Positions 2,613 through 64,000 of a DNA stretch of 64,000 nt are shown here, one piece after another. Below the pieces are notes generated by a model. That model did no database searches and had not been told where the DNA came from. It worked only from the letters and a program-made list of their open reading frames with translations. The stretch lies in the NCBI GenBank assembly GCA_963710415.1, contig CAVQAH010000024.1, forward strand, positions 150,234 through 214,233, written 5' to 3'. A program made the translations under genes and the position numbers. This stretch comes from an uncultured Acidobacteriota bacterium. GTDB lineage: Bacteria; Acidobacteriota; Vicinamibacteria; Vicinamibacterales; 2-12-FULL-66-21. How positions within the stretch are numbered: position 1 is the first letter of the stretch; each line of letters begins with the position of its first letter.

Positions 2613-2650
2613 GGGCCGGCTGCCACTGGTGGCCGGCCTTTTCTGTTTGT
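2613..2650 (+). terminator. Rho-independent terminator after the OmpA-family gene
   Basis: 'GGCCGGCTGCCA-CTGG-TGGCCGGCC' stem-loop followed by 'TTTTCTGTTTGT', about 20 nt after the stop. Confidence 0.7.
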
Positions 2651-2712
2651 CGGGCCGACGCTGTCAGCATGTTTTCGTGCTCGCGGGGGCTGCAGGCGCT
2701 TTTCCGATTTCC

Positions 2713-2803
2713 GTGCTCGCGGGGCCCCACCCCCGCTCGCTTCTCGCTCGGCGGCGCGGCTTCGCCGCGCTGCCCTCCGGCGCCTCGCTCAGGCCGCAGG
2801 CGC
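2713..2803. repeat. ~90-nt GC-rich dispersed intergenic element, copy 1
   Basis: 'GTGCTCGCGGGGCCCCACCCCCGCTCGC...CCGCAGGCGCT' is about 80% identical to 36596..36687. The central hairpin is GCGCGGC-TTC-GCCGCGC. Confidence 0.8.
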
Positions 2804-2804
2804 T

Positions 2805-2839
2805 TTTCCGATTTCCGATTTCCGATTTCCGATTTCCGA
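2805..2839. repeat. Tandem heptamer array TTCCGAT x5
   Basis: Five perfect TTCCGAT units read directly. A partial copy 'TTTCCGATTTCCG' lies at about 2701-2713. The same unit family occurs at 25411-25455 and 59831-59965. Confidence 0.9.
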
Positions 2840-2863
2840 TTACACTGACTTCCACCACTCGGC

Positions 2864-25410: not shown

Positions 25411-25455
25411 CCCGATTCCGCTTTCCAATTCCCGCCATCCGATTTCCGCTTTCCC
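25411..25455. repeat. Degenerate heptamer array (TCCGATT/TCCGCTT type)
   Basis: 'GCCCGAT TCCGCTT TCCAATT CCCGCCA TCCGATT TCCGCTT TCCC'. Same unit family as 2805-2839 and 59831-59965. Confidence 0.75.
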
Positions 25456-42039: not shown

Positions 42040-42217
42040 ACGTGTTTACTGCGGACGTGTGCAGTGCCACGTGCTGCCGTGGTCCGTGGTCGCGTGCGTC
42101 CGTGTCTGCCGTGCGATCTGCAGCACGCGCGAACATAACCGTGACAGCAGTATCGATGCGAGACACGTAGCACGTGACGAAGCAGCACGGACTACGGAGG
42201 ACGTCCGCACGTGCACG
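42040..42217. repeat. ACGTGC-type heptamer array forming a long imperfect inverted repeat
   Basis: The arms are 'CTGCGGACGTGTGCAGTGCCACGTGCTGCCGTGGTCCGTGG...' and '...CACGGACTACGGAGGACGTCCGCACGTGCACG'. Same unit family as 61801-61967 and 63955-64000. Confidence 0.7.
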
Positions 42218-55946: not shown

Positions 55947-57179
55947 ATGGCGTTCGATACGTTGCGCGCCAACAAGCTGCGCTCCGCGCTGACGATTCTC
56001 GGCGTGGTGATCGGCGTGACGTCGATCGTCGCGATGACCTCCCTCATCCGCGGTTTCGGGGATCAGATGTACCAGCTGATCCGGCAGATGGGCTCCGACA
56101 CGGTTTACCTGCAGAAGTTCGGCATGGGCAGCTTTGCGAGCGGACGCAGTTTTCTCGACGTACTGAAGCGCCCCAACCTGTCCGAGGAGGACGCCAAAGC
56201 GATCGTGAAGGGGGCGCCGTCGGTGTCGATGGTGGGGCTGCAGCTTGGTGGCGGCCCGGGATCCCAACCCCAGCGCATGACCTATGGCAACCAGTCCACC
56301 AAGCAAATGATGGTCATGGGCGCGAGCGCGAACTTCGCCGATACGAACTATATCGCTCTGGAGAACGGCCGGTTCTTCAGCGACTACGAGGTCTCGCATC
56401 GTCGGGCCGTCGTCGTGCTCGGCTATGCGCCGGCCTCGACGCTGTTTCCCAATCTCGATCCGATCGGCAAGCGCGTCCGGATCGGCTCGACGGAGTTCAC
56501 CGTCGTCGGCACCTTGGGCAAGCGGCCGAGCCCGCTCGGCAATCCCGACGAGTTCGCGGTCATTCCCCTGACGACTTACGAGAAGCTTTTCCGGTCGCCG
56601 GTGATTCGCGGCATCCTGACACGGTTCCTGACGATCACGGTCGTACCCCGAGCGGGCGTGCCGAGCGACCAGGTCATTCGCGAGATCGAGGATGTGATGC
56701 GCAGCCGCCATCGGCTGCGGCTCGACGAAGAAAACGACTTCGACATGTTGACGTCCGACGCGGTGATGAAGATCGTCGATCAGCTCACCCAGGCCGTCGC
56801 GCTGGCGCTCGTCGTGATCTCGTCCATCGCGTTGCTGGTCGGCGGCATCGGCGTCATGGCGATCATGACCATTTCCGTGACCGAGCGTACGCGCGAGATC
56901 GGCATCCGCAAGGCGATTGGCGCGCGCCGCCGTGAAATCCTGGTCCAGTTTCTCCTCGAGGCAGTCTTCCTGACGTCGGTGGGGGGGCTGCTCGGCATCC
57001 TGCTCGGGAGCGGAATCGGCCTCGTCGTCAACCAGCTCGCCAACTTCCCCGTGTCGTTGCCGTTGTGGTCGTTCGCGCTGGGCTTCGCGTTCTCGGCGAC
57101 GGTCGGCATTTTCTTCGGCATGTATCCCGCGGTCCGCGCCTCCCGGCTCGACCCGATCGAGGCGCTGCGGTACGAATAG
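55947..57179 (+). CDS. MacB/FtsX-type ABC permease (no ATPase domain), intact
   Basis: ORF 55947..57179 (410 aa) with 'MAFDTLRANKLRSALTILGVVIGVTSIVAMTSL' and 'VTERTREIGIRKAIGARRREI'. Confidence 0.85.
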   Translation: MAFDTLRANKLRSALTILGVVIGVTSIVAMTSLIRGFGDQMYQLIRQMGSDTVYLQKFGMGSFASGRSFLDVLKRPNLSEEDAKAIVKGAPSVSMVGLQLGGGPGSQPQRMTYGNQSTKQMMVMGASANFADTNYIALENGRFFSDYEVSHRRAVVVLGYAPASTLFPNLDPIGKRVRIGSTEFTVVGTLGKRPSPLGNPDEFAVIPLTTYEKLFRSPVIRGILTRFLTITVVPRAGVPSDQVIREIEDVMRSRHRLRLDEENDFDMLTSDAVMKIVDQLTQAVALALVVISSIALLVGGIGVMAIMTISVTERTREIGIRKAIGARRREILVQFLLEAVFLTSVGGLLGILLGSGIGLVVNQLANFPVSLPLWSFALGFAFSATVGIFFGMYPAVRASRLDPIEALRYE

Positions 57180-57184
57180 AGCGG

Positions 57185-57233
57185 CCAGCTGCCAGCTACC
57201 AGCTGCCAGCTGCCAGCTACCAGCTACCAGCTA
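57185..57233. repeat. Heptamer array CCAGCT(G/A) x7 (left flank of four-helix-bundle gene)
   Basis: 'CCAGCTG CCAGCTA CCAGCTG CCAGCTG CCAGCTA CCAGCTA CCAGCTA' read directly. Confidence 0.9.
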
Positions 57234-57302
57234 CATGTTGAGTTCCCTCCTACCTGAGCATCAAGATTGCAGGCTGCGGCGCGTCTCATTCAGGAGGACG
57301 CG

Positions 57303-57658
57303 ATGAAAGACTACCGCAAGCTCGTGGTGTGGCAGAAAGCGCACATGCTCACGCTGCAGACGTACGAACTTTCTCCGCACTTACAGAAACCCGAAGCGTG
57401 GCCTCTGCGCGATCAGCTGTTGCGAGCAGCGATCTCGATTCCCTCCAACATCGCTGAAGGCGCCGGCCGCGGCACCGATCCAGACTTTCGTAGATTTCTA
57501 TGGCATTCCTTGGGTTCGTCGAACGAACTTGAGTATGATCTCCTTCTTGCCCGAGACCTCCGGTTCCTGCAGGGTGACATTGCATTGCCGGCTCACCGGC
57601 GCAGCTGGAGGAGGTCCGGCGGATGCTCACGGGCCTCGTACAGTCGTTGAACTCGTGA
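57303..57658 (+). CDS. Four-helix-bundle protein (23S rRNA intervening-sequence protein / Avd-like family, PF05635-type), one frame break
   Basis: ORF 57267..57650, from the Met at 57303. It reads 'MKDYRKLVVWQKAHMLTLQTYELS...LRDQLLRAAISIPSNIAEGAGRGTDPDFRRFLWHSLGSSNELEYDLLLARDL'. A family-typical C-terminus 'AQLEEVRRMLTGLVQSLNS*' is in another frame, with a break near 57590. Confidence 0.75.
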
Positions 57659-57673
57659 TAACGCCGAGTCGCC

Positions 57674-57722
57674 GGCAGCTGGCCGCTGGCAGCTGGCGAC
57701 TGGCAGCTGGATGCTGGCAGCT
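57674..57722. repeat. Heptamer array GGCAGCT-type x7 (right flank, inverted relative to the left flank)
   Basis: 'GGCAGCT GGCCGCT GGCAGCT GGCGACT GGCAGCT GGATGCT GGCAGCT'. It contains 'GGCAGCTGG', the reverse complement of 'CCAGCTGCC' in the left array. Confidence 0.9.
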
Positions 57723-57740
57723 GACGCGGAGGTTGCCCTT

Positions 57741-59828
57741 ATGAAGGTCTATGACGCTCAAACATTGAGAAATGTGGCGCTCGTCGGTCATTCGGGCGCC
57801 GGCAAGACGCAGCTCCTTTCGGCGCTGCTCTTCGACGCCGGCGCTGTCAACCGTCTGGGTCGGGTCGACGATGGCTCGAGCGTGACCGACTACGACGAAG
57901 AAGAAATCGCCCGCAAACACACCCTCTCGTCCAGCCTCGCCTACGCTGAATGGAACAAGAACAAGATCAATTTCATCGACACGCCGGGAATGGCGAACTT
58001 CCTGAGCGAAGCGCGCGCGACGCTGCGCGTGGTGGATACCGCTCTGGTCGTCGTCGACGCCGTGTCCGGCGTTCAGGTATCGACCGAAAAGGTGTGGGCT
58101 ATTGCCGATGAGCTCGAGGTGCCCCGGCTCGTCGTGCTCAACCGCGTGGATCGCGAGCGCGCCAGCCTCGATCGGTCTCTGGATTCACTGCGCACGGTGT
58201 TCGGTCGCGCCGTCGTGCCGATTCAGCTGCCCATCGGTGAAGAGAAGTCGTTCCGTGGAGTCGTCGATCTCGTGGCCATGAAGGCCTATACATTCGCCAC
58301 CGACGGCAGCGGCAAGCCGACCGAAGGAGCGATTCCCGCCGAGCTCGAGTCGCGCCGCCAAGACCGCCCGTGAGGCGCTCATCGAAATGGTCGCGGAAGC
58401 CGACGATTCGCTCATGGAGAAGTTTTTCGAGGCCGGCACGCTCACGCAGGACGAGCTGGTCGGCGGGCTCAAGCGCGGGCTTCAGCGCCGCGCGGGTTTT
58501 CCCCCTCGTCTGCACGTCAGGCATCACGAATGTCGGCATCCAGCCGCTGCTCGACGCCATCGTCACCTACGTGCCTTCACCGGCCGAACGGCCGTTCAAG
58601 GTGGACGATGCGACGATCGCGAGCACGGACAATGGGTCGAGCGCAGCGTTCGTCTGGAAGACGGTGGCTGACCCCTTCGCCGGCCGCATCACGATGTTCC
58701 GCGTCGTCTCGGGAACGATCAAGGCCGACTCGACGCTGCACAACGTGACCAGGGACGTCAGCGAGCGCCTTGGCCATGTCGTGCTGCTCCAGGGCAAGAC
58801 GCAGAGCAACGTCCCCGAGATCAAGGCGGGCGATGTCGGCGCGGTCGCCAAGCTGAAGGAAACGCAGACGAGCGACTTGCTGGCTGACAAGGGCGTCAAA
58901 TTCAAGATCTCGCCGATCAAGTTCCCCGAACCGGTCATTTCGTACGCGATCGAGCCGAAGAGCCGGGCCGACGAGGAAAAGATCAGCACGTCTTTGCACC
59001 GGTCTGCAGGAAGAGGATCCGAGCATCAGCTACAACCGCGACGCGCAGACGAAGGAACTGCTGCTGGCCGGTCAGGGGCAGTCGCACATCGAAGTCACCG
59101 TCGCCAAGCTGAAGCGGCGCTTCGGGGTCGAAGTGAACCTGAAGCTTCCGCGCATTCCCTACCGCGAAACGATCACCGCGGCAACCGAAGCGCACGGGCG
59201 TCACAAGAAGCAGACCGGCGGCCACGGGCAGTTCGGCGACTGCAAGGTGAAGTTCGAGCCGCTGCCGCGCGGCGCCGACTTCGAGTTCGTGGACGACATC
59301 TTCGGCGGGTCGATCCCGCGTCAGTACATACCTGCCGTCGAGAAAGGTCTGCAGGACGCGCGACTGCGCGGTTTCCTCGCCGGCTTCCCGATGGTGGATT
59401 TCCGCGCGACGGTGTTCGACGGCTCGTTCCACCCGGTCGATTCGAACGAGCTTTCGTTCAAGATGGCCGCGTCCCTGGCGTTCAAGGACGGCATGTCCCG
59501 CGCGCGCCCGACGCTGCTCGAACCGGTGATGGACGTCGAGGTGTACGCGCCGAGCGATTTCGCGGGTGATTTGATGGGCGACCTGAACAGCCGCCGCGGA
59601 CGCATCGGAGGAATGGATACGCGCGGCGTTTCGACGATCATCCGCGCGAAGGTGCCGATGTCCGAGATGCTGACCTACGAACAGCACCTCACGTCAGCCA
59701 CTGGCGGCCGCGGCTCGTATCACATGGAGTTTTCGCACTACGAAGAGGTGCCGTCACACCTGCACAGCAAGATCATCGCAGCGTCGAAGGCTGAGCGTGG
59801 AGGACACGAGGCGGCTGAGGAGTCCTGA
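57741..59828 (+). CDS. Elongation factor G family GTPase (EF-G paralog type), three frame breaks
   Basis: The Met at 57741 opens '[31 protein letters not shown]...[12 protein letters not shown]...VLNRVDRE' in ORF 57711..58373. The middle is in ORFs 58387.. and 58370... Domains IV-V are in ORF 59133..59828 ('[17 protein letters not shown]...[15 protein letters not shown]'). Breaks are near 58350, 58480 and 59000. Confidence 0.85.
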
Positions 59829-59830
59829 GA

Positions 59831-59965
59831 ATCGGAAATCGGACATCGGAAATCGGAAATCGGAAATCGGACATCGGACATCGGACATGGAATCCGATTG
59901 TTCGACACTGAGTCGCCCGATTGTCGACTATCCGATGTCCGATGTCCGATGTCCGATTTCCGATT
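59831..59965. repeat. Large heptamer palindrome (ATCGGAA/ATCGGAC x8 opposite TCCGATG/TCCGATT x5)
   Basis: The left arm is 'ATCGGAA ATCGGAC ATCGGAA ATCGGAA ATCGGAA ATCGGAC ATCGGAC ATCGGAC'. A ~44-nt centre separates it from the right arm 'TCCGATG TCCGATG TCCGATG TCCGATT TCCGATT'. It lies between the convergent EF-G gene and rplQ. Confidence 0.9.
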
Positions 59966-60593
59966 AAGAGCCGCCGGCTTTACGTGGCGATGACGTCTTG
60001 GCGCCTTTGCCGCGGGTATCGGCACGGCCACCCTTGACGCGCTCCCGGTCCGGCTTGGCTTTGCGGGTCGTTTCCTCGCCAGTCTCGCCTTCCGCGTCGG
60101 CTTTCTTGCCGCGCAGCCGTTCCGCAGCGGCGCGCAGGCGTCCGCCCACACCCTTGGCCTTCGGCTTCGCTGCCGCCTCGGACTTCTCGGTCTCGGCGTT
60201 GGGATTGAACTCGCTGCCGACGAGCTCGATCTGTGCGACTTCCGCGCTGTCGCCGCGGCGGTAACCAATCCGCAGAATACGGGTGTAGCCGCCAGGCCGC
60301 CCCTCGAAGCGGGGCGCGAGCGTGTCGAAGAGCTTCGCCACGACGTCGCGGTCCTGCAGGTCGCGAAGCACGAGCCGCCGCGCGTGCAGTGTCTTGCCGT
60401 TCTCGCCGCCGCCGGCAATGCCACGTTTGGCGATGGTGATGATCCGCTCCACGAACGGACGCAGCTCTTTTGCGCGCGGAACCGTCGTTTCGAGGTGCTC
60501 GTATCGGAGCAGCTCCTGCGCCTGGTTCCGGAGCATCGCGATACGATGATTCGTCACGCGCCCGAGCTTACGATGGCCTACTCTGTGTCTCAT
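59964..60593 (-). CDS. rplQ: 50S ribosomal protein L17 with ~85-aa Lys/Ala/Glu-rich C-terminal extension
   Basis: ORF 59964..60593 (209 aa). It reads 'MRHRVGHRKLGRVTNHRIAMLRNQAQELLRYEHLETTVPRAKELRPFVERIIT'. Confidence 0.95.
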   Translation of the reverse strand: MRHRVGHRKLGRVTNHRIAMLRNQAQELLRYEHLETTVPRAKELRPFVERIITIAKRGIAGGGENGKTLHARRLVLRDLQDRDVVAKLFDTLAPRFEGRPGGYTRILRIGYRRGDSAEVAQIELVGSEFNPNAETEKSEAAAKPKAKGVGGRLRAAAERLRGKKADAEGETGEETTRKAKPDRERVKGGRADTRGKGAKTSSPRKAGGS

Positions 60594-60614
60594 TGCCGTG
60601 ATCCTTGTTGCTTG

Positions 60615-60699
60615 CCGGGGACTCGCGCTCGGATCCGTCGTCGGGTGGCTCGGCGCGACGGACTTCGAGCACCGAGTCCCGAGCCCCGAGTCCCGGCAC
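60615..60699. repeat. Inverted heptamer element (CCGAGTC type) in the rpoA-rplQ spacer
   Basis: 'CCGGGGACTCGCGCTCGG' (60615-32) is complementary to 'CCGAGTC CCGAGCC CCGAGTC CCGG' (60672-95). Confidence 0.7.
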
Positions 60700-60707
60700 G
60701 ATCTAGT

Positions 60708-61754
60708 CTACTCCTGAGACTGCGCTGCCGGCTGATCGAGCCGCATGCCGAGGCTCAGACCCATGCCCGTCAGGATTTCCTTGATCTCGTTCAGCGACTT
60801 TCTGCCGAAGTTCTTGGTCTTCAGCATCTCGCCTTCGCTCTTCTGCACGAGCTCGCGGATGGTCCTGATGTTCGCGTTCTTCAGGCAGTTGTACGACCGC
60901 ACCGACAGCTCGAGCTCCTCGACGCTCTTGTCGAGATTCTCGTTGAGCGCCGCGCGCGGCGTATCGGACGACGCGTCCTGCTGCATGTCGCCGGACTCTT
61001 CGAGGTTGATGAAGATGTTCAGGTGGTCGCGAATCAGCTTGGCCGAGAGCGACATCGCATCGCGCGGCGTCACCGATCCGTTCGTCCACACGTCCACCGT
61101 CAGCTTGTCGTAGTCGGTGGCCTGACCGATACGCGCCGCCTCGACCAGGTAGTTCACCTTCTTGATCGGGGAGTGCACGGAGTCGATCGGGATCCAGCCG
61201 ATGCCGAGATCCTCGTCGAAGTTCTTGTCCGCCGCCACGTAGCCACGGCCGCGCTTCACGCGCATCTCCATGTGCAGCTTGCCGCCCTCGGCCACGGTCG
61301 CGATGTGCGCTTCGGGCTCGAGGATTTCGACGTCGGCGTCGGTCTCGATGTCGCGAGCCTTGACCGGGCCCGCCTTGTCCACGCGCAGATACAGCGTCTT
61401 GGTCATGTCGACGTGCATCTTGAGCGGAATCTGCTTGAGGTTGAGGATGATATCCGTCGCGTCCTCGACGACCCCGGGGATCGGAGAGAACTCGTGCAGG
61501 ACGCTGTCGATCTTCACCGCGGTGACGGCAGCGCCGTCAATCGAGGAGAGGAGCACGCGCCGCAGCGCGTTGCCGATCGTCGTCCCGAACCCGCGCTCGA
61601 AGGGCTGCGCGTAGAACCGTCCGAACCTGTCCGTGAGCGTCTCGCGCTCGAACTCGAGCCGCTTCGGCCGCTGAAAACCTTTCCAGAGCATTCTGTCCGT
61701 TCCTTTCGCGTTCATGCGCCCGACTTCCGGACGCCGCCAGACCTTCGGGTTCAC
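60708..61754 (-). CDS. rpoA: DNA-directed RNA polymerase subunit alpha
   Basis: ORF 60708..61754. The probable start is the Met at 61691 ('[15 protein letters not shown]') or at 61715. Contains '[16 protein letters not shown]' and the C-terminal domain '[23 protein letters not shown]'. Confidence 0.95.
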
Positions 61755-61800
61755 TCCCCGCCTCCCGCCGCAGGTCTGGGATGGCTGCGGGCGAGGAGCT

Positions 61801-61967
61801 AGCTACTGACGTGCTTACGTGCGACGCTGCTGCACGTGCTACGTGCCACTCCATGCCGATTGTGACGTGCTTACATGCGACATGCGCACGTGCCGTGACA
61901 CGGCAATGGCACGTGACAGGCAGCACGTGCGCACCGTGAGCACGTCCGCACGTAAGCACGTGACACT
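61801..61967. repeat. ACGTGC-type heptamer array in the rpsD-rpoA spacer
   Basis: About 165 nt of units such as 'GACGTGC TTACGTG ... GCACGTG CTACGTG CCAC ... GGCACGT GACAGGC AGCACGT GCGCACC GTGAGCA CGTCCGC ACGTAAG CACGTGA'. The region is self-complementary because it is ACGT/CACGTG-rich. Confidence 0.75.
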
Positions 61968-62597
61968 TCACTTGCTATACAACTCCACAATCAGCTGTTC
62001 CTGCACGGGCAGGTTGATCTGCTCGCGTGTGGGCAACGACTGAATCCGTCCGGTCATGTTGCCGGCGTCGAACTGCAGCCAGTCCGGGATGCCGCGTCCT
62101 TTGACCTCTTCGATCGCGTGCTGGATCGCCGTGTTCTGGGCGCTCGTGCCGCGGACCGTGATCACGTCACCTGCCTTCACCGAGTAGGAGGGCACGTCGA
62201 CCTTGCGCCCGTTGACCAGGAAGTGCCCGTGGCGAACGAGCTGGCGCGCCTGCGGACGCGAGGTGGACAGGCCGAGGCGGTAGATGACGTTGTCGAGCCG
62301 TCGCTCGAGCAGCTGCAGCAGCGTCTCGCCGGTGATCCCGCGGGTGCGGTCGGCCATCTCGAAGTAGCGCCGGAACTGGTTCTCCAGCACGCCATAGATG
62401 CGCTTGACCTTCTGCTTCTCGCGGAGCTGCAGCCCGTAGCCCACGAGCTTCGCCTTGCGCAGCTTGCCATGCTGCCCCGGCGGCAGGTTGCGCTTCTCGA
62501 TGGCGCACTTCTCCGTGTAGCAGCGCTCTCCCTTCAGAAAGAGCTTCATCCCTTCGCGCCGGCAGAGCCGGCAGACCGCTCCGATGTAACGTGCCAT
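61968..62597 (-). CDS. rpsD: 30S ribosomal protein S4
   Basis: ORF 61968..62597 (209 aa) with '[36 protein letters not shown]'. Confidence 0.95.
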
Positions 62598-62618
62598 TCT
62601 TTTGTCCTTCTGTCCACT

Positions 62619-62696
62619 GCAAGCTCCAGCTCTCAGCTTCAGCCCCTCGACGTCACTGCGCTCACCGCCCGACCTGAAGCTGGCAGCTGGAGCTGC
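62619..62696. repeat. ~23-bp-stem hairpin of CAGCT-type heptamers in the rpsK-rpsD spacer
   Basis: 'GCAAGCTCCAGCTCTCAGCTTCAG' and 'CTGAAGCTGGCAGCTGGAGCTGC' pair at about 21 of 24 positions, with a 31-nt loop. Confidence 0.8.
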
Positions 62697-63151
62697 TACA
62701 CTCGCCGACGCTTCGGTGGCCGGCAGCCGTTGTGCGGAATCGGCGTGACGTCGCGGATCGACTTCACGTCGATCCCGATCGTCTGCAGGGCGCGAATCGC
62801 CGACTCGCGTCCGGCGCCCGGGCCCTTGACGCGCACTTCGACACTACGCATGCCGAATGCCTTGGCCGCATTACCAGCCGCGATCGCCGCCTGCGTCGCC
62901 GCGAACGGCGTCCCCTTGCGCGATCCCTTGAACCCGATACCGCCGGCGCTCGACCATGCCACCACCGCCCCCTCGGGATCGGTGATCGTCACGATCGTGT
63001 TGTTGAAGGAAGCCTGGATATGCGCGAACCCGTGGTGCACGATGCGCTTCTCGCCACGCTTCTTGAACGTCTTCTTTTTCGTCGGGCGTCCGGCCGGTTT
63101 TTTTCCGCCTTCAGCCGGTGCTGTCGGATCTACGGGGTCATTTTTTGCCAT
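62696..63151 (-). CDS. rpsK: 30S ribosomal protein S11 (about 20-aa N-terminal extension)
   Basis: ORF 62696..63151 (151 aa) with '[42 protein letters not shown]...[16 protein letters not shown]'. Confidence 0.95.
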
Positions 63152-63155
63152 GTGT

Positions 63156-63531
63156 CTACACCGTCTTCTTCTTCGCGATCGCGCCCTTGCGCGGACCCTT
63201 CCGCGTACGCGCGTTGGTGCGCGTCCGCTGTCCGCGCACCGGGAGGTTCCGCCGGTGGCGCATCCCGCGCCAGCTGCCGATTTCCATCAGCCGCTTGATG
63301 TTCATCGAGATCTCCTTGCGGAGATCGCCCTCGACGCGGCCCTGTTCCTCGATCACGCGGCTGATCTTGCGGACGTCGTCTTCAGAGAGGTCCTTGACGC
63401 GGATGTCCCCGCTCACAGCCTGCCTCGCCGAGGATGTCGTTCGACCGTTTCCGTCCGATCCCGTAGATGTAGGTCAGGCCGACCTCGATCCGCTTCGTCC
63501 GTGGAAGATCCACACCAGCTATACGTGCCAT
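63156..63531 (-). CDS. rpsM: 30S ribosomal protein S13, one frame break
   Basis: ORF 63156..63416 has '...[42 protein letters not shown]'. The N-terminus '[34 protein letters not shown]', from the ATG at 63531, is in another frame. The break is near 63420. Confidence 0.9.
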
Positions 63532-63540
63532 ATCTTTGAT

Positions 63541-63613
63541 CCTTGTAGTCGTGAGTCGACTAGTCGTCAGTCAGTCGACTGACTGTCGACTGCCGACTGC
63601 CGACTCCCGACTG
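63541..63613. repeat. Inverted heptamer element (GACTGNC type) in the rpmJ-rpsM spacer
   Basis: The left arm is 'GTAGTCG TGAGTCG ACTAGTC GTCAGTC AGTC'. The right arm is 'GACTGTC GACTGCC GACTGCC GACTCCC GACTGTC'. Confidence 0.8.
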
Positions 63614-63727
63614 TCATCCCTGTCTCTGCTTGTGCTTCTGATTCGGGCAGATCACCCGCACCACGCCGCGGCGGCGGACGATCTTGCACTTGTCACAAAT
63701 TCGTTTGACCGATGCTCTGACCTTCAT
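63614..63727 (-). CDS. rpmJ: 50S ribosomal protein L36
   Basis: Not in the ORF track because it is too short. My own minus-strand translation gives '[37 protein letters not shown]' (37 aa). Confidence 0.9.
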
Positions 63728-63745
63728 GACGCGCTTGTGCCTTCC

Positions 63746-63946
63746 TTACGAAATCTTCTCGACGATCCGGCCGCGCGTGAGATCCCGCGGCGACAGCTCG
63801 ATGCGAACGCGATCTCCGACCAGCACCCGGATGAAGTTCTTGCCGGGCCCACTCGGTGCGTGCGCGGTCACCTGCCGCTGCTTGTCGATCCCCACCTTGT
63901 AGAGACCGTGCGGCAACTGCGCCAGCACCGTTCCTTCAACCACCAC
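63746..63946 (-). CDS. infA: Translation initiation factor IF-1
   Basis: ORF 63746..63946 (66 aa, GTG start) with 'VEGTVLAQLPHGLYKV...KNFIRVLVGDRVRIELSPRDLTRGRIV'. Confidence 0.9.
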   Translation of the reverse strand: MVVEGTVLAQLPHGLYKVGIDKQRQVTAHAPSGPGKNFIRVLVGDRVRIELSPRDLTRGRIVEKIS

Positions 63947-63954
63947 CCTCGCTC

Positions 63955-64000
63955 AACTACGCGCTGCCGCACGTCGCACGTGGCACGTCGGCACGTCGCA
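63955..64000. repeat. GCACGTC-type heptamer array upstream of infA (runs off the window)
   Basis: 'GCACGTC GCACGTG GCACGTC GGCACGTC GCA' read directly. Confidence 0.7.

Follow-up and report, generated by a model that had tools for sequence, protein, structure and literature searches.

The alpha operon of an uncultured soil Acidobacteriota bacterium (Vicinamibacterales, assembly GCA_963710415.1) raises the question of what the long, repeat-filled spacers between its ribosomal protein genes are, and what they might do in the operon mRNA. The window analysed here is a stretch of 64,000 nucleotides of contig CAVQAH010000024.1, in which infA, rpmJ, rpsM, rpsK, rpsD, rpoA and rplQ follow one another in this order, all on the minus strand, between 59.9 and 64.0 kb. 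An initial annotation of this DNA had proposed that each sizeable spacer of the operon holds its own array of degenerate tandem 7-mers, one half of the array being the reverse complement of the other. We consider it somewhat probable that these spacers carry heptamer hairpins resembling the STRRs (repetitive elements made of short, tandemly repeated units) of cyanobacteria, which would serve in the operon mRNA as double-stranded stems cut by RNase III or as barriers to decay.

The spacer lengths on which the proposal was built are correct for three long junctions (82 nt for rpmJ/rpsM, 98 nt for rpsK/rpsD, 114 nt for rpoA/rplQ), as well as for the two shortest ones (4 nt for rpsM/rpsK, 18 nt for infA/rpmJ). 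For rpsD/rpoA, the stated 213 nt apply if an upstream GTG is taken as the start codon but, since the conserved start of rpoA is the ATG at 61691 (MLWKGF), this spacer measures 276 nt. It is not built of repeats throughout: its final ~110 nt form a conserved structured leader, which is described further below.

Periodicity was measured as a z score for matches at a lag of 7 nt, against 1000 dinucleotide-preserving shuffles of each spacer. The period of 7 claimed for all the long spacers is found in rpmJ/rpsM (z 5.6, p <=0.001), in rpoA/rplQ (z 4.2, p <=0.001) and in the array upstream of infA (z 2.6, p 0.006), and is marginal in rpsK/rpsD (z 2.4, p 0.017; lag-6 z 2.0), where the units are 6-7 nt long. 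It does not extend to rpsD/rpoA: the whole spacer reaches a lag-7 z of 1.7 (p 0.045) and its array part alone shows no significant lag 7 (z 0.7; lag 8, z 2.2), the ACGTGC motifs being spaced by 7-9 nt. When the whole window was scanned, seven arrays were detected at lag 7 versus 0-2 per lag for the other lags from 3 to 13, and Markov simulations gave 0.

The long RNA hairpins that had been predicted were examined with RNAfold, and three of the four operon spacers fold better than their shuffles, rpoA/rplQ being the one that does not clearly do so. The rpmJ/rpsM hairpin (63547-63612, minus strand; CAGTCGG and CGACTG units; palindrome I11; Tandem Repeats Finder (TRF) match of period 7 at 63581-63613) extends from 1 nt past the rpmJ stop codon to 15 nt short of the rpsM ATG, with a minimum free energy of -39.8 kcal/mol and a folding z score of -6.5. 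The rpsK/rpsD hairpin (62622-62694, minus strand; -43.6 kcal/mol, z -2.8 to -3.2) is made of degenerate CAGCTNN units of 6-7 nt and contains the inverted repeat I9 (21 nt, 90% complementary); its ortholog in locus L001 consists of clean heptamers, CAGCTAC and CAGCTGC. The rpsD/rpoA spacer encloses an imperfect long hairpin of ACGTGC motifs (61806-61966, minus strand; inverted repeats I10, I14 and I15; TRF periods 8 and 17; z -3.8 to -4.6), whose orthologs show GACGTGC(G) x9 in L001 and another unit, GTGCAGA, in L002. In the rpoA/rplQ hairpin (60614-60697, minus strand; TRF 60672-60695, period 7), the mRNA 5' arm reads GGGACTC x4 and the 3' arm is degenerate. An ungapped 14-nt inverted-repeat score had no power against dinucleotide shuffles, because shuffled repeats remain self-complementary, and the RNAfold z scores were used instead.

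The strongest hairpin of the window is located downstream of rplQ (59832-59963, minus strand; -81.7 kcal/mol, z -10.1; lag-7 z 9.9), just outside the coordinates covered by the initial annotation, which did not contain it. Built of TCGGAAA and TCGGACA units (inverted repeats I1-I8, up to 44 nt; TRF 59830-59892 and 59931-59964, period 7, 8.0 and 4.9 copies), it occupies the entire gap between the convergent rplQ and elongation factor G (EF-G)-like genes. At the other end of the operon, a CGCACGT-type array upstream of infA (63968-64000, minus strand; TRF period 7, 4.6 copies) is truncated where the window ends; in L001, the orthologous map/infA spacer contains two arrays.

Altogether, about 10 arrays are distributed across the 64-kb window and belong to about four unit families, with 2-3 loci per family: TCGGAAA (59830, 2805 and 25412), CAGCTNN (57180/57670 and 62620), ACGTGC (61806, 63968 and 42050) and GACTNNN (63547 and 60614). 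The unit was said to differ from spacer to spacer, and several units are indeed present, but the families recur from one locus of the window to another. The arrays are not locus-specific either, as had been supposed: similar ones exist elsewhere in the window, in two Acidobacteriota classes and in other phyla, and units are shared within a genome.

These observations were extended to the rpoA region of Vicinamibacterales-like and Terriglobia-like genomes, in a survey set of 83 loci (hereafter designated by L numbers), which yielded 147 arrays at lag 7, while none of the remaining lags between 4 and 12 gave more than 16. Pooled over spacers, the fraction of matches amounts to 0.356 (lag 7), 0.32 (lag 14) and 0.293 (lag 21), versus about 0.25 at the other lags. 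For 76 loci, the spacers (50.6 kb) contain 105 arrays and the coding sequence (242 kb) contains 9. An inverted partner is present within 700 nt for 107 of 159 arrays, and these 159 arrays comprise 85 distinct canonical units. In 62 of 68 pairs, the variants of the unit follow a mirrored order between the arms (p 6e-11 versus unit-permuted arms); the drift of one arm is therefore not independent of that of the other. Among related loci, 96 spacers contain arrays, and the medians for their hairpins are a start 3 nt past the stop codon, an end 13 nt ahead of the next start and ~30 pairs. Moreover, corresponding junctions bear hairpins with unrelated units in two Acidobacteriota classes.

Could such arrays be produced by the assembly of a long-read metagenome-assembled genome? 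Several genes of the window are split by apparent frameshifts, namely rpsM (63156-63531), the EF-G-like gene (57711-59828), an OmpA-like gene (896-2590) and the C-terminus of a PF05635 gene (~57590). These are probably indel errors of the long-read assembly, and repeat copy numbers in the window therefore need caution. The arrays, however, occur at the same junctions in independent short-read assemblies made in other studies with other assemblers (a JGI contig, SPAdes NODE contigs and MEGAHIT k141 contigs), and also in the finished genomes of cultured Nostoc and Azospirillum. An assembly or sequencing artefact thus has next to no probability, and is already refuted except for exact copy numbers.

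At the RNA level, we propose that the alpha-operon transcript would fold each array into a double-stranded stem of ~25-35 bp, reaching from just past the upstream stop codon to just before the downstream ribosome-binding site; the stems predicted in the window have ~25-35 pairs, and their transcription is assumed from their position inside the operon. Stems of such length would be RNase III substrates and exonuclease barriers, so that the polycistronic mRNA would most likely be cut into separately stable pieces and neighbouring cistrons uncoupled. Among the roles first suggested, that of processing site or decay barrier is the best supported reading, on analogy with heptamer stems studied by experiment in other organisms; that of attenuator is unlikely, no U-tract being present. 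The same holds for intrinsic terminators tuning read-through between cistrons, which would agree with strong, G+C-rich hairpins placed directly behind stop codons and, downstream of rplQ, with a hairpin located between convergent genes, a position at which one would expect a terminator. Nevertheless, no sense-strand U-tract follows any of the hairpins, which makes a terminator role unlikely, and a terminator scan gave three sites, none at a hairpin and not above shuffles; likewise, the terminator and promoter scan found no sites at the hairpins. We thus regard termination or attenuation as very improbable.

Several observations weigh against the processing or decay-barrier reading. Cleavage and stabilisation in this organism are inferred, and the folding of rpoA/rplQ does not clearly exceed that of shuffles (z -1.5 to -2.0). 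This last value is weak because one arm is degenerate, and orthologs with two intact arms reach z -7.8 (L001) and -4.5 (L002). The sense strand folds slightly better than the antisense strand (mean -1.95 kcal/mol, 45 versus 32), but array-free spacers show the same bias, which makes this comparison uninformative; selection at the RNA level is not clearly indicated by it. The mirrored unit order could stem from palindrome formation and not from selection for pairing. Direct-only arrays also exist (2693-2841 in the window, and in L006, L007, L008 and L010). Finally, periods of 8 and 9 are found among related hairpins, and some close relatives have no hairpin at the same junctions, which implies that the hairpins are dispensable.

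This last point comes from the comparison of orthologous spacers, where arrays occupy the same junctions in some relatives but are missing from other close ones. The S4 protein is identical in three metagenome contigs (L001-L003). Between the window and L001, coding DNA is 98-99% identical whereas spacers are 81-94% identical and copy numbers differ. The closest species representative, L004 (Vicinamibacterales; 99% protein identity for RpoA, 96.7% DNA identity for rpoA), has spacers that cannot be aligned with those of the window; in other relatives, the same junctions measure 0-4 nt or bear a different unit. The arrays thus turn over far faster than coding DNA, and a role in setting cistron stoichiometry sits badly with their absence from close relatives. 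Units are nevertheless shared inside genomes, with a minimum distance of 1.65 within loci versus 2.9 between loci: TTCAAAG occurs at three separate places of L015, and CAGCTNN almost everywhere in L005. At the DNA level, arrays would grow and shrink by slipped-strand events, be kept palindromic, be exchanged or spread among the spacers of one genome, and be tolerated solely between genes; such exchange or spread would explain the small set of unit families peculiar to each genome. Slippage would drive this turnover, perhaps tied to the RNA hairpin as is the case in Haemophilus.

Such turnover can also be viewed as neutral. The arrays would then be a by-product of replication slippage with a preference for 7 nt in DNA free of coding constraint, devoid of function at the RNA level, and their hairpin form would arise because palindromes promote template switching. 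Their hypervariability and uneven presence among close relatives, the direct-only arrays, and a folding bias identical to that of ordinary spacers all agree with this view, as does the over-representation of heptamers in many bacterial genomes, attributed to polymerase slippage (Mrazek 2007, as far as it is cited in PMC4692102 and PMC4679880). On the other hand, the mirrored unit variants call for selection for pairing or else for a process specific to palindromes, the stems consistently spare the ribosome-binding site, and the same junctions bear hairpins in two Acidobacteriota classes with unrelated units. In H. influenzae, furthermore, heptamer turnover itself needs the RNA hairpin and RNase III. 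A purely neutral origin is therefore, in our opinion, possible but not probable, and either a neutral or a mobile-element origin is compatible with an effect at the RNA level.

The possibility of a mobile element is raised by a further hairpin, located between a permease gene and the EF-G-like gene at 57180-57723. This is the sole element of the window in which an inverted-repeat stem encloses a PF05635 open reading frame (ORF), the hairpins of the ribosomal operon being ORF-less. Its 5' arm (57180-57234, plus strand; lag-7 z 8.0; TRF 57185-57234, period 7, 7.1 copies, 93% matches) consists of CCAGCTG/CCAGCTA x7. The 3' arm (57670-57723, plus strand; lag-7 z 5.8; TRF 57674-57723, period 7, 7.1 copies) consists of CAGCTGG x7 (GGCAGCT x7) and is the reverse complement of the former. 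In the loop, a gene at 57303-57650 (plus strand), preceded by an AGGAGG ribosome-binding site and frameshifted at its C-terminus in the assembly, encodes a four-helix bundle of the family PF05635/TIGR02436 (Pfam PF05635, E 2e-27), also named "23S rRNA intervening sequence protein" or S23p. Its nearest solved structure is 2GSC, Xanthomonas XCC0516, and its ortholog in L005 matches TIGR02436 (E 1e-29).

The orthologous permease/EF-G spacer exists in several states. No array is present in L004 and others; L015 has an empty hairpin with a unit of its own; L014 has a hairpin of 9-nt units (CACGAAGGN); and a hairpin plus a PF05635 gene is found in the window, L005 and L101, the latter two having the same layout as 57180-57723 with the unit CCAGCTN. 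In L019, this spacer contains a ~48-nt palindrome-containing tandem repeat in three copies.

The association is not confined to this locus. All three PF05635 genes of the Acidobacteriota loci are framed by inverted heptamer arrays, and that of Edaphobacter sits within the rpoA/rplQ spacer itself. We then considered 80 diverse PF05635 loci from metagenomes (median pairwise identity 46%, G+C 0.33-0.67). An inverted repeat brackets 51 of 70 of these genes versus 5 of 70 for a direct-repeat control, and a lag-7 array lies within 200 nt on at least one flank in 47 of 72 loci, versus 0-12 for other lags, the 12 being those at lag 8. Period seven is thus the most common one and not a rule. Array density is 10-fold higher near PF05635 genes than far from them, but since this mostly reflects a comparison of intergenic with coding DNA, the bracketing test is the valid one. 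With respect to orientation, the PF05635 gene agrees with same-strand neighbours in 24 loci and opposes them in 4. Among plasmid tblastn matches to the PF05635 protein, 20 of 23 records belong to STRR-rich cyanobacteria, as exemplified by a Nostoc punctiforme plasmid gene flanked by AGTCAGG x8 and GACTCCT. A match in Azospirillum corresponds to a true 23S rRNA intervening sequence with a heptamer stem (CAGAGGA / CCGTCCT), and one on a Gemmatirosa plasmid (L169) to a hairpin of 8-mers (GGGCAGGA/CTCCTGCC). In Xanthomonas campestris, a GGGAATC repeat spans the start of XCC0516 in a published repeat table.

The arrays may accordingly be viewed as non-autonomous copies resembling miniature inverted-repeat transposable elements or REPINs (hairpins of repetitive extragenic palindromic (REP) sequences), or as gene-less remnants of a PF05635 cassette, inserting just after stop codons and with PF05635 as cognate factor. 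The successive states of the permease/EF-G spacer (nothing in L004, an empty hairpin in L015, a hairpin with gene in the window, L005 and L101) are what such an element would leave. So are the units shared between PF05635-flanking arrays and other arrays of the same genome, the two cassettes with one unit in L163, the bracketing across phyla, the bias of plasmid matches towards STRR-rich cyanobacteria and the GGGAATC repeat adjoining XCC0516. Against this, neither a transposase nor a target-site duplication nor any fixed sequence at the termini was observed, although no search aimed at RAYT (the REP-associated tyrosine transposase) was made. Array length and unit are continuously variable, no catalytic activity is known for PF05635, a small helical bundle, arrays bracket further small genes (PilZ-like, LuxR-like) too and are frequent throughout the intergenic DNA of the PF05635 contigs, the 10-fold density being mostly an intergenic-versus-coding effect. 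Altogether, we hold mobility to be a rather unlikely origin.

Returning to the stems as substrates of RNase III, the design seen around PF05635 genes, in operon spacers as in 23S intervening sequences, would free the inserted gene and leave the host transcript unharmed, and the empty hairpins of the ribosomal spacers would be the gene-less form of this architecture. A more ambitious and, to us, doubtful extension is that inverted heptamer arrays and PF05635 (S23p/Avd-like) genes form one system across phyla. An RNA "insulator" stem, with release by RNase III, would let a small gene ride in highly expressed transcripts (operon spacers, 23S rRNA). The PF05635 protein would be its cognate factor, as RAYT is for REPINs, and the gene-less hairpins of operon spacers, the cyanobacterial STRRs and repeats of the Xanthomonas GGGAATC and TAACTGA types would owe their spread or maintenance to this system.

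Other small genes are bracketed by inverted heptamer arrays as well, PilZ-like and LuxR-type helix-turn-helix genes among them (L159, 123-579; L087, 130-600; L134, 353-941). In L134, an array also appears to lie inside a UDP-GlcNAc 2-epimerase-like ORF (...PHPSPLTSHVSPLTSHL...). The arms show a compositional polarity. At PF05635 flanks (L084-L163), the 5' arm has a G+T content of 0.63 (29 arrays versus 8) and the 3' arm is C+A-rich, with a G+T content of 0.37 (31 versus 11), while in operon spacers (L025-L083) the keto-rich 5' arm is a weaker effect, confined to Terriglobia-like loci. Because a perfect palindrome reads alike on both strands, this polarity is silent on the direction of transcription; a telomerase-like addition or the avoidance of Rho-loading sites behind it would be pure speculation.

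How do these elements compare with known systems? Like STRRs, they consist of tandem 7-nt units in few families per genome, dispersed in intergenic DNA and possibly forming intercistronic hairpins. Tandem 7-nt units are found at rpmJ/rpsM, rpoA/rplQ, upstream of infA, downstream of rplQ, at 57180/57670 and at 2805, and the arrays are dispersed, multi-copy and intergenic (~10 sites in 64 kb; 105 in spacers versus 9 in coding sequence). They differ from STRRs by their host, Acidobacteriota and not heterocystous cyanobacteria, and by their much larger number of units (85 in 159 arrays). The window units TCGGAAA, CAGCTNN, ACGTGC and GACTNNN are presumably not the canonical STRR1-3 units, which we take to be absent from the window, whereas Terriglobia and metagenomic units such as GTGGTCA would be one mismatch from STRR2. 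In RNase P RNA, STRR inserts extend a helix. An STRR insert in the gene for this RNA is recorded by Vioque 1997, and for the STRR hairpins between cyanobacterial hupS and hupL a role in transcript stabilisation has been proposed (PMC2670836). Contrary to the initial annotation, heptamer repeats between essential cistrons are therefore not without precedent, since the hupS/hupL STRR, the groES/groEL spacer of Xanthomonas and the pecE/pecF spacer of Nostoc all have them.

The heptamer repeat (ATCTTTC)n of H. influenzae hmw1A forms a hairpin in the 5' untranslated region that is cleaved by RNase III, and changes in its repeat number require the hairpin, transcription and RNase III (PMC12721329). 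It resembles our elements as a heptamer repeat forming a long hairpin in an untranslated region, with the RNase III processing known for hmw1A. It differs in being a single phase-variable virulence locus, neither dispersed nor intercistronic, whose right arm is a G-rich segment where those of the window are reverse-complement arrays. The 23S intervening sequence of Coxiella contains an S23p ORF, tandem GACAGAT heptamers of variable number and a stem in which RNase III cleaves at the first repeat (PMC4990558). Such intervening sequences (Coxiella, Leptospira and others) share with 57180-57723 an inverted-repeat stem with a looped PF05635 ORF. Unlike them, the window elements lie in mRNA spacers, the ribosomal-operon hairpins are ORF-less and the units differ; no window element is inserted in helix 25 or 45 of 23S rRNA, all of them being located between protein-coding genes.

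The GGGAATC repeats of Xanthomonas, the GGGGAYT repeats of Nostoc (PMC4692102) and the TAACTGA repeats of Beggiatoaceae, cyanobacteria and Bacteroidetes (PMC4679880) are likewise intergenic heptamers that vary between close relatives, are sometimes inverted and occur in operon spacers (groES/groEL, pecE/pecF). Those genomes are described with one dominant unit in mostly direct arrays, in contrast to the many units and mainly hairpins found here, and the repeats were interpreted as G-quadruplexes or translational signals (PMC4692102, PMC4679880). REP sequences, bacterial interspersed mosaic elements (BIMEs) and REPINs are also genome-specific, short, palindromic and dispersed intergenic repeats, thought to affect mRNA stability (PMC3116915, PMC3733652). 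The common GTAG/CGTC head of these repeats is not found here, and the stems are heptamer arrays of variable length instead of a 20-40 bp unit. The cognate gene of REPINs, RAYT, is itself flanked by repeats; the flanked gene here encodes a PF05635 four-helix bundle and not a Y1 transposase.

STRR-like hairpins are shown by this survey to be a pervasive, fast-evolving part of the operon spacers of Acidobacteriota, a dominant and little-studied soil phylum, and the alpha-operon spacers offer concrete sites for the question of RNase III-dependent mRNA segmentation. PF05635 genes looped in inverted heptamer arrays, found in Acidobacteriota, cyanobacteria, Alphaproteobacteria and many unassigned metagenomic contigs, tie together the heptamer excess of bacterial genomes, the 23S rRNA intervening sequences and a large protein family of unknown function, and make a shared mechanism testable. 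This link seems to be unreported so far: we found no published general connection between PF05635 and heptamer repeats, nor one between PF05635 and STRRs, the Coxiella study alone noting heptamers in one intervening sequence, and no paper on such heptamer repeats in Acidobacteria. Were the cross-phylum system real, it would account for the long-noted heptamer excess of bacteria and assign a function to a very large family of orphan proteins.

Some unit types recur among distant hosts. The NAGTGRN type (CAGTGGT or TAGTGGT, with ACCACTG on the opposite arm) is found in contigs of widely differing G+C (L118, L135, L141, L108, L162 and others) and in Terriglobia rpoA/rplQ spacers (L047-L056). Units with an AACTGA core are present in Terriglobia loci and beside the PF05635 gene of L106, and TTTAGGG-like units also occur; TAACTGA itself is known from Beggiatoaceae and cyanobacteria. 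This recurrence hints at sequence preferences common to several phyla.

The non-repetitive part of the rpsD/rpoA spacer, which separates the ACGTGC arrays from the rpoA start (61691), contains a conserved leader resembling a pseudoknot (61738-61798, minus strand), in which helix 1 (CTCCTCGC/GCGGGGAG) is crossed by a second helix (CAGACCTGC/GAAGGTCTG). Across 16 loci of Vicinamibacterales-like genomes, pairing extends to 96.3% of cells, versus 40% at most in slid controls, and compensatory changes affect 10 of the 17 pairs. A possible third helix, CCGCAG/CTGCGG, would use the same CTGC in competition, and a GGGAGG located between the helices is conserved. Neither the leader nor the heptamer hairpins match an Rfam family, known ribosomal-protein leaders included, in a scan of 56500-64000, which returned just two chance microRNA matches (E 0.24 and 0.41; threshold E<=1), and the leader is a candidate for a new cis-regulatory RNA. 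In several Terriglobia loci, the 3' tails of spacers show a recurrent conserved stretch upstream of an operon gene, GTCCGGGAAGAAGGGTGAAGCCAAACCTGTAAACCGGTCATCTAAAGGAGAA, which may be another leader element.

CRISPR was ruled out for the arrays, as the repeats have no unique spacers between them, and a GC3-based gene caller intended for a window-wide intergenic census was dropped because genes were mis-called and coverage was 68% of the window. Among the remaining arrays of the window, a short degenerate array of the TCCGATT/TTCCGCT family lies at 25412-25454 (TRF period 7, 5.6 copies, 62% matches; lag-7 z 2.9, p 0.005), and a weak degenerate ACGTG-type cluster was read by eye at 42050-42180 (TRF 42077-42104, period 7; lag-7 z 1.8, p 0.054). 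The direct, non-inverted TTTCCGA array at 2693-2841 (plus strand; lag-7 z 5.1; TRF 2805-2841, period 7, 5.3 copies, 100% matches) has a duplicated 21-nt lead-in and is placed upstream of a gene starting at 2864. Finally, a canonical intrinsic terminator, which unlike the heptamer hairpins has a T-run (a G+C-rich stem followed by TTTTCTGTTT), is found after the OmpA-like gene at 2613-2646 (plus strand), and its presence indicates that this organism uses ordinary terminators.

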